Of a DNA stretch of 33,691 nt, positions 1,346 through 33,307 are shown in pieces (positions within the stretch are counted from its first letter, which is position 1; every line of letters starts with the position of its first letter). The DNA is from Eledone cirrhosa (Eukaryota). The stretch covers positions 1 to 33,691 of the forward strand of contig CAXHJY010001212.1 of assembly GCA_964016885.1 (NCBI GenBank), read 5' to 3'. The position numbers were made by a program, and so were the translations under genes. Under the pieces are notes generated by a model, which searched no databases, had not been told where the DNA came from, and saw only the letters and a program-made list of their open reading frames with translations.

Positions 1346-1779
1346 GAAGTTATATTTAAATTGTTGGGATACAACAAGCAAATATTTTTATAACTGATAT
1401 AAAGCACACATATATACATGTACGTATGGATTCACCGAACATTTATTATAATGCTCGGTGTGTTTGTAAACAAACATCACGTATTAAGCCGTACAGTGTC
1501 TAGCAACTCACTCGATATGCAAATTAGGCTGCTCAGCCGTTAATATGCTTAAGGAAAGTATAAACTTTCAGACGTTCAACCATCTGCCAGGAAGGTATAC
1601 GGTGCTGACGATAGCTCAAAAGCTTGAAACTAGTATAGCGTTCCTTTGTCAGTGTTGAACAAATGAGCAACGATCGTTGCTAGACACTGTACGGCTTAAT
1701 TCGGGATGTTTGTTTACAAACACACCAAGCATTATAGTAAATGTTCGGTGAATCCTTACGTACATGTATATATGTGTGC
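1346..1779. mobile_element. Non-coding fold-back element with hammerhead and one-sided tail (probably PLE-mobilised)
   Basis: ~104-bp inverted arms 1404-1507 and 1676-1779. The left arm alone extends ~58 nt (1346-1403), and this extension is homologous to 15134-15198. Confidence 0.7.
1599..1641 (+). ncRNA. Minimal type-I hammerhead ribozyme (slightly degenerate)
   Basis: acggtg-CTGACGA-tagct caaa agctt-GAAA-ctag-TA-tagcgt. Palindromic CTAG in stem III; one mismatch in stem I. Confidence 0.7.
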
Positions 1780-1934
1780 ATGTATGTATATATATATACG
1801 TACTACTGTACGTCTGTATACATATATGTATGTACGTATACATACTTATACATATATATATATTTATATATACTGTATATATACACATACCTACATATAT
1901 ATATATATATATATATATATACTGTATATATATA

Positions 1935-2620
1935 CATAAAATATTTATTTCAAACCCAAACTTCACACTAAGAGTTTTCTCCTTCAAAGTAATCCCCCTT
2001 GAGTATGTAACTGTAATCTTAGCCCTCTGCAGCGATGAAACTTTTTTCTTCGTAATTTTATATACATGTCCTCTGTTTCAGGTCGTCAAGCACTGAGCAG
2101 AGAGCAACGAACAAACTTCAAAACTCCGTTAGAAGCACTGGGGTTGCTGCAGCAAGTGTATGGAGATGAGACGATGTCACGCACACGTGTTTTTGAGTGA
2201 TGCAAGAGGTTTAAAGAAGGACGCGAGGACGTGGAAGATGACCCCAGGAGCGGAAGGCCCTTAACAACCAGGACTGAGGTCAACGCTGAGCGCGTCAGGC
2301 AGATAGTGCATAGCGATCGTCGGCTGATGGCAAATGAGCTGGGCATGAATCAGGACAGCGTCTGGAAGATTCTCACTGAAGATTTGGACATGCGGAAAGT
2401 CTACGCGAAGATGATGCAAAAACTGCTGAACGATGACCAGAAGAGTCGACGCATGCAAGTGTACCAGGACATCCTCGAGCGTCTTGAAACTGAACCAGAC
2501 TTTCTAGGGACAGTCAGCCCCGGTGATGAGTCATGGATCTTCGAATACGACCCGGAGTGGACACGTTTTTAAGACGTGGATGACATCAAAAAGGCCGTGA
2601 CTACGGAACTGCGGAGGATC
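1935..2620 (+). pseudogene. Tc1/mariner (mariner-type) transposase relic, internally deleted, no intact TIRs seen
   Basis: Translation ...[35 protein letters not shown]...GDESWIFEYDPE, then a jump to the C-terminal RF*DVDDIKKAVTTELRRI. Stops and frameshifts. Left boundary approximate. Confidence 0.88.
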
Positions 2621-2838
2621 CATTGCTTTATATCTGGAGATCTCTCTGCCCTTGTCGTCACATGGTACCATGGGCCCAGCACTATGTGTCAATAATTGTC
2701 ACAAGTGTAGTGTTTGTACCAGAGTTTTCAAGTCGCTGGCTGGACTAAAAAGTCACACTCGTTCAGCGCATCGGTAGGGGTTCTCCTACATGGATATAAA
2801 GTAGTGGCCGTACTCGAAAATGAGTTGGCAGCCACCAT
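2621..2838 (+). mobile_element. 5'-truncated copy of RTE-derived non-autonomous element
   Basis: Near-identical to the reverse complement of 30523-30740. 2706-2777 encodes [23 protein letters not shown], a C2H2-type motif like RTE-clade ORF C-termini. Confidence 0.7.
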
Positions 2839-3180
2839 GTATGTATATATGCATGCATGCATGTACGTGCGCGTGCGTGTGCTTTTTTTTTTTTTTTAAA
2901 TAACAGATTAAGTAACAATTTCTATCAGTTGATACTTACTTAATGATCTATGACATGTTGGGCATGTACTGGATAAAGTAAGTTTCACAGTTCTTCTCAC
3001 ATTACAATTGAATAGAAAAGGACATTCACCGGCCAGCTGAAAATACAAAGATATATATTACAAATGTTTACGTTAATACTGTTTTAACAACTTGAGCGCT
3101 TGATGCATAGGTATGTTTTAGTATAGTATGGGGTGATGTACACTTGGTGTTACACTATAGTCCTTTATAAGCTGAGTGTT

Positions 3181-3381
3181 AATAATAATTATTGTATCTA
3201 CTTTTGGCACAAGGCCAGCAATTATCCATGTGCATTACTGGTGCTTCATTTTATCGACCCCGTAAGGATGAAAGGCAAAGTGAACCTCGGCAGGATTTGA
3301 ACTCAAGCCGTAAAGGGCCGTAACTCTATGCTACAAAGCATGGTGCCCGAACCTCTACTGATACAGCCAATCCACCACCCT
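3181..3381 (-). mobile_element. tRNA-derived SINE
   Basis: Minus strand has B-box-like GAGTTCAAATCC, central GCCTTTCATCCTTACGGGGTCGATAAA and a (TAT)n tail. Resembles cephalopod SINEs from recall; not searched. Confidence 0.75.
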
Positions 3382-3411
3382 TGTTAAGAATAAACTAAGA
3401 GTGTGAAAGAG

Positions 3412-3629
3412 GTGTCAAAGTGTCATCATTAAGTGTATTCAGGTGTTATACGCATTTCATGATTGATCAGATCAAGGTATGATCCGTATCAGACTCGCGG
3501 ATTCCTTAGTCTGATGAGCTACTGATTACAGAGCCGATCCCGATCGATACGGAATGTACTGTACAATGAGCTGATGAATCGCGAAACGCGCGTAACACCT
3601 GAATAAACTTAATCATGATATTTTGACAC
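3412..3629. repeat. Decayed fold-back (about 63-bp inverted arms) with hammerhead-like core
   Basis: 3412-3474 is the diverged reverse complement of 3567-3629. Inner pair tccgtatc/gatacgga. CTGATGA...GAAA-cgcgcg-TA at 3571-3594 followed by AATAAA. Confidence 0.65.
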
Positions 3630-30522: not shown

Positions 30523-31130
30523 ATGGTGGCTGCCAACTCGTTTTCGAGTACGGCCACTACTTTATATCCATGTAGGAGAACCCCTACCGATGCCCTGAAC
30601 AAGTGTGACTTTTTAGTCCAGCCAGTGACTTGAAAACTCTGGTACAAACACTACACCTGTGACAATTATTGACACATAGTGCTGGGCCCATGGTACCATG
30701 TGACGACAAGTGCAGAGAGATCTCCAGATATAAAGCAATGCCTGTGCCGTGAAGCTTTTATAGTGAGCAAAGGCACTGCACAAAGCCAGTCCCACTCTCT
30801 TAACCAAGATGATATTTACCAAAAAGAAGAACAAGTCAACATCATTGGATACCATCAGGGTTGCAGGTGTTATATCAGAGTTTTCCTTCTCCTAGAATTC
30901 TGCCTTGACAAAGGCTAAGGGGTCATCTCTCCCGGTGATTTTGGATGGCCATTGACTCTTAAGAGCTCCTTTGCCCTTTGACAGGTTTTGTTTTTAGTCC
31001 TGCAGGATGTCCAAAGTCACCCTCCTCACCAAGAAACCTTGGTGGGGTTGCCAGTTTAGTCGCCAACGACCCGACCATGAGACAGGTTGTACTGGGATAC
31101 ATGTTACCAGTAGCACCAACTGGTGACCTG
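30523..31130 (-). mobile_element. ~610-bp RTE-derived bipartite non-autonomous element
   Basis: The 3' part encodes [23 protein letters not shown] and matches 2621-2838. The 5' part is structured and has GGAGAAGGAAAACTCTGA (RTE 5'-region-like, from recall). No RT. Confidence 0.65.
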
Positions 31131-32446
31131 ACATATATATATATACATATATATATATATACATATATATATATACATATATATATATATACATATATAT
31201 ATATATACATATATATATATATACATATATATATATATACATATATATATATATACATATATATATATACATATATATATATATATACATATATATATAC
31301 ATATATATATATATACATATATATATATACATATATATATATATACATATATATATATACATATATATATATATACATATATATATATATACATATATAT
31401 ATATACACACATATATATATATATATATATATATATATACACATATATATATATATATATACACATATATATATATATATATATATACACATATATATAT
31501 ATATATATACACATATATATATATATATATATACACATATATATATATATATACACATATATATATATATATACACATATATATATATATATATATATAC
31601 ATATATATATATATATATACACATATATATATATATATATATATACACATATATATATATATATATATATATATACACATATATATATATATATATATAT
31701 ATATACACATATATATATATATATACACATATATATATATATATACACACATATATATATATACACACACACATATATATATATATATATATATATATAT
31801 ATACACATATATATATATATATATGTATATATATATATATGTATATATATATATATGTATATATATATATATATATATATATATATATATGTGTGTATAT
31901 ATATATGTGTGTATATATATATATATGTATATATATATTTGTGTGTATATATATATATATATGTATATATATATATATGTGTATATATATATATATATGT
32001 ATATATATATATATGTGTATATATATATATATATGTATATATATATATATATATGTGTATATATATATATATATGTATATATATATATATATATGTGTAT
32101 ATATATATATATATGTATATATATATATATGTGTGTATATATATATATATATGTATATATATATATATATATGTGTATATATATATATATATATATATAT
32201 ATATATATATGTGTGTATATATATATATATATATGTGTGTATATATATATATACATATATATATGTGTGTATATATATATATATATATATATATATATAT
32301 ATATATATGTGTATATATATATATATATGTATATATATATATATATATGTGTATATATATATATATATATATATATATATATATGTGTGTGTATATATAT
32401 ATATATATATATATATATATATATATATATATATATATATATATAT
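31131..32446. repeat. (AT)n tract with mirror polarity about 31815
   Basis: AC interruptions on the left of about 31810, GT interruptions on the right. Confidence 0.95.
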
Positions 32447-32605
32447 ATTGGAATAAATGCTCTGAAATAGCGATATATATGTGAATATAGACATAGAATA
32501 TTCGAAAATATTCTGTATGTTTATAATAAACATTTTGAAGACCTAATCGCTATAGAATAGAATACGTCACGTATTACAATTAGATTCTCGATAAAAGCAA
32601 GGGAA

Positions 32606-32648
32606 GTAATCTACGCGTTTCATTCTTGTTAGAAATCTTCAGGACTAC
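32606..32648 (-). ncRNA. Minimal type-I hammerhead ribozyme
   Basis: Reverse complement of 33070-33112 with one loop-II change. Confidence 0.88.
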
Positions 32649-33069
32649 ATATCCAGTGCTTTTATCGAGAATGACACAGCTAGAGACTTATAGAATACTT
32701 AGCTGTGTACAGGAACTGGTTTGAAAGAGCGGTTGCCGGTCCGGCAGAAATTAAGAAATTGGAATAAATGCTCTGAAATAGCGATATATATGTGAATATA
32801 GACATAGAATATTCGAAAAATATTCTGTATGTAATACGTGACGTATTCTATTCTATAGCGATTAGGTCTTCAAAATGTTTATTATAAACATACAGAATAT
32901 TTTCGAATATTCTATGTCTATATTCACATATATATCGCTATTTCAGAACATTTATTCCAATTTCTAATTTCTGCCGGACCGGCAACCGCTCTTTCAAACC
33001 AGTTCCTGTACACAGCTAAGTATTCTATAAGTCTCTAGCTGTGTCATTCTCGATAAAAGCACTGGATAT

Positions 33070-33112
33070 GTAGTCCTGAAGATTTCTAATAAGAATGAAA
33101 CGCGTAGATTAC
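33070..33112 (+). ncRNA. Minimal type-I hammerhead ribozyme
   Basis: gtagtc-CTGAAGA-tttct aata agaat-GAAA-cgcg-TA-gattac. 6-bp stem I, palindromic CGCG, GUA cleavage triplet (after 33106). Confidence 0.9.
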
Positions 33113-33307
33113 TTCCCTTGCTTTTATCGAGAATCTAATTGTAATACGTGACGTATTCTATTCTATAGCGATTAGGTCTTCAAAATGTTTATTATAAACA
33201 TACAGAATATTTTCGAATATTCTATGTCTATATTCACATATATATATATATATATATATATATATATATATATATATATATATATATATTTATATGTATA
33301 TATATAT

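Follow-up and report, generated by a model that had tools for sequence, protein, structure and literature searches.

How does an insertion come to carry two inverted copies of one element whose 3′ ends, both facing the target, almost always differ in length? The question is raised by a contig of Eledone cirrhosa (GenBank CAXHJY010001212.1), which forms our window in its entirety (33.7 kb; positions 1 to 33,691), belongs to a 3.0-Gb genome and is about 45% (AT)n-type repeat. A first-pass annotation of this DNA had drawn six head-to-head fold-backs in (AT)n, each with one long and one short 3′ end. We found that the one-long/one-short rule is real, holds genome-wide and is a sharper form of an architecture known from Penelope-like elements (PLEs). 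Our reading, to which we assign a probability of roughly 0.65, is that three PLE families and retrozyme repeats insert head-to-head into (AT)n, with both target nicks priming reverse transcription at different fixed internal sites of a tandem or circular RNA from one source.

The fold-backs were read from assembled sequence, and copies of each family (labelled A to F) were counted genome-wide by pattern searches with family anchors. Exact anchor matches numbered 26,884 for A, 4,833 for B, 15,054 for D and 15,059 units for E, with 45 for the diverged family C under a strict anchor, and reversed-pattern controls gave 0 matches in every family. Pairs were then scored on one contig (C1, 443 Mb), taking the first 100 listed matches per family, minus-then-plus pairs within ~8 kb, and the outermost ends of each. 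The tally excludes copies lying in the window itself, two wide spans (12 and 15 kb) that enclose other sequence, three of 15 E arrays lacking an inverted arm and family C, which was tallied separately. Long/short pairing was seen in 86 of the 88 resulting fold-backs (A, 25/26; B, 24/25; D, 25/25; E, 12/12; one-sided binomial p 1.3e-23 vs 0.5). Long/long pairs came to 2/88 and short/short pairs to 0/88. Across the genome, family A ends adjoining (AT)n lay at the exact short site in 12,045 cases and at the exact long site in 11,079. An AT-like tract of at least 12 nt stood at the start of both flanks in 65 of the 68 A, B and D fold-backs, which supports the proposed (AT)n targeting. The expectation of bimodal ends held as far as the sites being discrete, and failed as a strict rule, family B having one short site and several long ones.

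Two candidates were reassigned during scoring: an apparent D long/long pair (L200) is a tandem with a short outer end, and an apparent B short/short pair (L037) is two separate insertions. A miniature inverted-repeat element or DNA transposon with equal terminal inverted repeats was also rejected, the ends being unequal in 86/88, the inner ends varying freely and a reverse transcriptase (RT) open reading frame (ORF) lying inside. Separately, L033 and L034, family B fold-backs that lie 9.5 kb from each other and are almost identical, share an inner junction and differ at the right end, which is long in one and short in the other.

Within the window, masked self-comparison and mapping onto natural tandem copies bore out five of the six fold-backs as drawn (B large, A, D, B mini and E), with arms head-to-head, 3′ ends toward (AT)n and one 3′ end longer. 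The features concerned are the following.

8998..10626 (−): family B PLE, short-ended inverted arm, ending at AACAATAT, 26 nt inside the ORF of the next unit; 99% identical to 11893-13528
10623..13578 (+): family B PLE, long-ended arm, a 5′-truncated part of a 4,147-bp unit reaching 41-43 nt beyond the short site
10634..12994 (+): 786-aa ORF, the C-terminal part of the family B ORF, with RT (YVDD), CX4CxxC linker and GIY-YIG with CCHH
13287..13335 (+): family B hammerhead-like core with CUGACGA, stem II, GAAA and a weak stem I; the strict descriptor does not detect it
13510..13578 (+): start of the next family B unit's ORF (ATG at 13510), including the short site at 13535 and the tail up to the long site
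14268..14471 (−): family A PLE, short-ended arm, placed by self-comparison and tandem-copy mapping
14469..14779 (+): family A PLE, long-ended arm, with a predicted minimal type I hammerhead (core at 14541)
15129..15855 (−): family D PLE (Hydra clade by its motifs), long-ended arm, placed by ORF motifs and arm mapping
15863..15985 (+): family D, short-ended arm, with a hammerhead-like core and an 87-nt difference to the long arm
29159..29270: family B mini fold-back with a long arm at 29159-29229 (−) and a short arm at 29236-29270 (+), separated by 6 nt
32447..33245: family E fold-back, retrozyme type; long arm 32447-32832 (−), short arm 32830-33245 (+)
32642 (−) and 33076 (+): predicted hammerheads of family E, in a 310-bp tandem unit
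1404..1850: family C fold-back, retrozyme type; the minus arm (1404-1507) breaks off at GTGC, and the plus arm (1505-1850) reaches the family's short site
1605 (+): predicted hammerhead of family C, in a 420-435-bp tandem unit
1346..1410 (−): family D-type tail fragment fused to the family C arm at a single-copy junction

The tail differences proposed for these insertions largely survive, at 41-43 nt in B, 87 nt in D, 26 nt in E and 60 nt for the family A tail (64 nt in the window copy, owing to a 4-nt duplication), and the family B break is indeed identical in two insertions, the mini fold-back and the large one. The sixth fold-back, placed at 1346-1779, was mis-drawn: its right arm extends to ~1850, the usual short end of family C, and the supposed 58-nt tail (1346-1410) is of family D type, 88% identical to 15137-15200 and fused to the C arm at GTGC. 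This junction occurs once in the genome; it could stem from a template switch or from a deletion between nested insertions. Nor do the sizes from 110 bp to 4.6 kb form the deletion series once suggested, as they mix families and reflect 5′ truncation.

What do the two ends represent in the RNA? Tandem copies of all five families (A, B, C, D and E) read on beyond the long end, into the ORF (A and B), toward it (D) or round the unit (E and C), and both ends are therefore internal RNA sites; the long end does not correspond to the 3′ terminus of the RNA, which had been taken as one of the two priming points. The short end matches (AT)n over 4 nt in A and B, 5 nt in C, 8 nt in E and 2 nt (or 7/8) in D, compared with 4 nt (A), 2-3 nt (B), 3 nt (C) and 2 nt (D and E) at the long end. 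A target-like motif of 4-8 nt ATAT at the short end is thus borne out for A, B, C and E, with 2 nt (or 7/8) in D. Annealing to an internal ATAT does not act as the selector, however: none of 100 family A copies ended at a better, longer internal (TA)3-6 tract ~125 nt upstream, so ATAT alone does not set the site.

Next, we compared the two arms of each insertion. Median divergence within vs between loci was 0.015 vs 0.071 for A (n = 12), 0.000 vs 0.006 for B (n = 15) and 0.006 vs 0.065 for D (n = 15), and an arm's own partner was its nearest or joint nearest relative in 8/12 (A), 12/15 (B) and 14/15 (D) cases. By eye, both arms had the same variant of an internal tract in 21 of the 22 family A pairs listed. 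Such likeness may reflect one RNA, two RNAs of the same source or later conversion. The longer arm was the short-ended one in 42 of 86 loci, the long-ended one in 35 and neither in 9, where they were about equal (40, 33 and 9 without four poorly aligned D loci). Since a snap-back copy cannot outgrow its template, both arms must have been copied from RNA in about half of the loci, and shared private variants together with either arm being longer suggest that the two target strands each primed on RNA. This supports the original proposal of priming from both sides of the break. Inner junctions (41 loci) comprised 24 overlaps of 1-10 nt, 6 blunt joins and 11 gaps of 1-15 nt.

The one clear target site duplication (TSD) lies in L035, which has a non-AT flank: it is 13 nt long, and the short end shares ATAT with it while the long end shares nothing. 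A longer target duplication was seen by eye at L127. Tract polarity ran continuously through the insertion in 34 loci and was mirrored in 12. Tract length after long and short ends did not differ (medians 67.5 vs 60.5, p 0.31) and thus gave no sign of one-sided repeat addition. The flanks of five loci (L216, L048, L264, L269 and L267) carry a locus-specific AT unit of 12-40 nt with the same interruption, in several repeats on both sides; repeated target duplication may help (AT)n tracts grow long. A further observation concerns the inner ends: arm 5′ ends cluster just upstream of a AAAATGGCG motif in L230 and L266 (B) and in L115, L116, L123, L126 and L127 (A), ~300 nt (B) or 260-275 nt (A) before the anchor end. 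The motif is YY1-like, and the clustering may mark a transcription start.

On the double-priming reading, the element endonuclease would nick both target strands in a staggered manner. Of the two rounds of reverse transcription, one would begin at the downstream site, where pairing is slight (2-4 nt), and its partner 26-87 nt upstream of that site, aided by 4-8 nt of ATAT pairing (in D, 2 nt or 7/8). Protein or RNA fold, and not pairing alone, would set these sites; the two cDNAs would be joined end to end by microhomology-mediated repair, and retrozymes C and E would use a borrowed PLE enzyme. An in vitro study of a Poseidon PLE found both strands to be cut and extended, with the tail bounded by two internal start sites of reverse transcription (PMC11167929). 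The same work describes PLE steps after the first priming as unvalidated, and the origin of PLE inverted repeats and one-sided tails has been named an open question (PMC8557442).

Several observations weigh against this reading. The in vitro start sites are alike on the top and bottom strands (PMC11167929). Two fold-backs of 88 are long/long (L228 and L033), and family B has long sites at about +46/48, +50 and +63/64 on a scale where the short site is +5. Family C, whose usual two ends lie ~56 nt apart, is looser: among 30 loci from its 45 anchor matches, 7 were clean long/short pairs and at least 4 had one arm at another site. Some copies have no inverted partner within 1.5 kb, two seemingly solo copies (L010 and L077) proving to carry a tiny, tail-only inverted arm, and family F, which also sits in (AT)n, is nearly always solo. 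Finally, the similarity of the arms could also stem from conversion between them after insertion.

A broader form of double priming is more tentative, and we place it somewhat short of even odds. It holds that PLE integration is obligately asymmetric double priming from Neptune-type to Hydra, with a downstream start without pairing, a partner 26-87 nt upstream with pairing and one RNA source; retrozyme circles would carry the same two-site signal, and their arrays would then be genomic proof of PLE insertion by rolling round a circle from both strands.

Of the other explanations, the one that survives best, though we consider it unlikely, is trimming, in which the long site is the start of both arms, one of them being cut back afterwards by endonuclease or repair to the point where ATAT pairs with the target. 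It predicts long/short pairs, rare long/long pairs and no short/short pairs, as observed, and a review ascribes the tail to endonuclease-mediated resolution (PMC8557442). Against it, reverse transcription starts in vitro at both ends of the tail (PMC11167929), and the short end of L035 is flush on the nick that the TSD defines.

Less probable still is a snap-back, in which the long-primed cDNA folds and its 3′ end is copied as DNA, the copy stopping 26-87 nt short where ATAT anneals to (AT)n. This would account for the private variants common to both arms and for the perfect hairpin junctions, with both arms starting from the same base, in L038, L212, L230, L266 and L272. It demands, however, a long-ended arm reaching at least as far 5′ as its partner, and in the 42 loci noted above the short-ended arm is the longer, at up to 12.9 kb vs 1.2 kb; some long arms, as in L010 and L077, are mere tail pieces. 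Snap-back is thereby excluded as a general route. Near-strict pairing over tens of thousands of young copies likewise excludes an independent choice of start sites.

The mechanism originally put forward, which we now think very improbable, was a single (AT)n-targeted enzyme acting for every family, with priming both at the genuine 3′ end of the RNA and at any ATAT inside it. The common target and architecture fit it, as do the short ends with 4-8 nt of ATAT in A, B, C and E. The internal position of the long ends, the better (TA)n left unused and the presence of three autonomous ORFs from two distant lineages contradict it in each of these respects, unless the long site is precisely where RNA processing takes place in vivo. 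That the fold-backs are chimeric-read or assembly artefacts, as might be feared for a small 33.7-kb contig so rich in AT-repeat, is hardly credible given that the structure recurs along a 443-Mb contig, that arms of unequal length stop at bases fixed for each family, are set apart by a few mutations and carry TSDs in mostly unmirrored flanks, and that the architecture is reported for PLEs of other species (PMC8557442).

The assignment of the fold-backs to PLEs, already made in the first-pass annotation, is upheld by RT + GIY-YIG ORFs, tandem units, inverted copies and one-sided tails. Family B is a 4,147-bp tandem unit whose ORF begins at the ATG in the terminal region (13510 in the window) and is estimated at ~1,210 aa from frames of 552 and 673 aa that overlap at a frameshift. 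Family A is a 4,151-bp tandem unit with its own ORF, 61% identical to that of B; copies carry frameshifts, and the longest open stretches are 1,130 aa (B) and 919 aa (A). Both have a single ORF with RT and C-terminal GIY-YIG (RVT_1 as a weak match; YVDD and VYSIRC...YIGET read in the ORFs), a CX4CxxC linker (CTNRKCIIC / CIDKKCITC) and CCHH, made up of C-x4-C in GIY-YIG and two downstream His. They carry the Neptune/Nematis motif pattern, to which we assign them on motifs. The best protein relative among the 120 homologues listed, 69% identical, is labelled as Octopus vulgaris, and none of the 120 is a named Neptune or Nematis reference. The 786-aa protein, recommended earlier for in vitro assays, is an N-terminally truncated fragment, its first residue being an internal Met next to the inversion junction, and is unsuited to such assays. 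A sequencing-run search listed no RNA runs holding the family A stretch that was searched.

Family D has tandem units of 3.7-3.8 kb, inserts into (TA)n and encodes its own ~750-aa RT + GIY-YIG protein with DKT (KSDKTNN), RWR (RIRWRAF, RWK-like), CxCX5C (CNCRDRSKC), CxxC (CDLC) and CxH (CRH/CKH) motifs and no CCHH. These motifs fit the published Hydra definition (PMC8557442) and, compared by eye, resemble those of Hydra-1_Obim. BLASTP gave no alignment between the B and D proteins (E 0.93). Judged by their coding motifs, there are at least three autonomous PLEs here, two of Neptune/Nematis type and one Hydra, from two distant lineages. The notion of one enzyme serving a guild of non-coding RNAs fails accordingly for A, B and D, each of which encodes its own RT + GIY-YIG; coding capacity is lacking only in C, E and F.

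With unit lengths of 310 and 420-435 bp, respectively, families E and C consist of non-coding tandem units of low GC content with one predicted minimal type I hammerhead each. They are of the non-LTR (long terminal repeat) retrozyme type, which would be expressed as self-cleaving, circular RNA. A hammerhead descriptor matched A, C and E, with 7 hits in the window (4 in A; 33076, 32642 and 1605) against a shuffle mean of 0.03 and maximum of 1. In B, D and F a hammerhead-like core was seen by eye and the strict descriptor fails, B having core and stem II only. Rfam returned no hammerhead in the window scan (best 150 of 301 matches, AT-repeat microRNA noise) or in focused scans of the A, B, C and E candidates, and whole-fold z-scores were unremarkable for A, B, C and D. 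Comparison of C, E and F with the terminal regions of A, B and D showed no link beyond low-complexity matches.

How much of this is new? Inverted copies, one-sided tails, (TA)n targeting and two internal starts of reverse transcription are already published, and the elements are ordinary members of known PLE and retrozyme clades. The inverted form of Penelope has been described (PMC2377424), and an octopus repeat annotation reports active PLE families, without this anatomy in the part of the paper available (PMC13282606). The Neptune/Nematis PLEs of PMC8557442 resemble A and B in their single ORF (RT with C-terminal GIY-YIG, CX2-5CxxC linker, CCHH), tandem units, inverted 5′-truncated copy, one-sided tail and microsatellite bias. 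They differ in tail length (30-40 bp vs 41-60 nt in A and B) and in the Asn-rich insert of the ~1,210-aa ORF of A and B, whose clade is assigned by motifs; the pairing is near-obligate here vs "often" in that account. Family D shares with the Hydra clade, e.g., Hydra-1_Obim, the RWK-like motif, DKT, CxCX5C, CxxC, CxH, a lack of CCHH and the (TA)n target, but its unit is 3.7-3.8 kb vs under 3 kb, and it has tandem units, inverted arms and an 87-nt tail where Hydra-1_Obim is given as "no pLTR" (PMC8557442). PAc, a Poseidon PLE of Anolis, likewise has two internal starts of reverse transcription near the ORF start, cutting and extension of both strands and an AT-rich target (PMC11167929). It belongs to another clade, its paper reports no long/short pairing in the portion available, and the short site here, unlike its counterpart, can pair with the target.

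In L1 twin or dual priming, too, the second nicked strand primes on RNA and gives inverted halves joined by microhomology between TSDs (PMC2837659). There it is a minority event, with varied internal places for the second primer and non-overlapping halves, whereas in the present insertions two fixed sites regularly give rise to arms that cover one and the same 3′ region. Earlier work describes minimal hammerheads in PLEs and proposes a circular template (PMC4209133), and non-LTR retrozymes have been proposed to depend on PLEs (PMC7229834; bioRxiv 10.64898/2026.07.22.740005). The metazoan retrozymes of those two sources resemble E and C in their non-coding tandem units, low GC content and type I hammerhead. 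The E and C arrays differ from them in being head-to-head, with fixed long/short ends in (AT)n, i.e., a PLE footprint; within the text available, "inverted" occurs 0 times in the first source and once in the second, and "tail" 0 times. Our literature search found no paper that quantifies long/short pairing or describes head-to-head retrozyme arrays, although older Penelope papers may hold such statements. What makes the present result valuable is how strictly the rule holds in two distant enzyme lineages and in a retrozyme. A PLE footprint on a 310-bp retrozyme supports the proposed PLE mobilization of animal retrozymes by insertion anatomy instead of phylogeny, and exact RNA sites with a simple target make the integration mechanism testable.

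The window holds further copies of these families.

1..390: seventh fold-back, family A, clipped by the edge of the contig; its minus arm covers 1-30 and its plus arm, which includes a tail, 28-390
6145..8419 (+): decayed, 5′-truncated family A PLE, its ORF split over several frames, ending at the short site
29000-29122, 29474-29596 and 33291-33439: family F copies, a ~125-bp element in (AT)n with a hammerhead-like core

Family F gave 9,368 anchor matches genome-wide with one main 3′ end, and a 15-nt stretch of its core is common with family E. Two of its copies, in mirror orientation, frame the B mini fold-back. Adjoining the decayed family A copy, a 790-aa stop-to-stop frame at 3900-6272 (−) has RVT_1 and zf-RVT and belongs to an L1/Tx1-like long interspersed nuclear element (LINE); a 549-aa RVT_1 frame at 26343-27992 (−) is part of another LINE. 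A further repeat is present in two copies, 96% identical, at 2621-2854 and 30507-30740, and its end adjoins (AT)n here as well as in L039 and L216. Finally, positions 16340-26260 consist of ~10 kb of almost unbroken (AT)n-type repeat with switching G/T/C interruptions.

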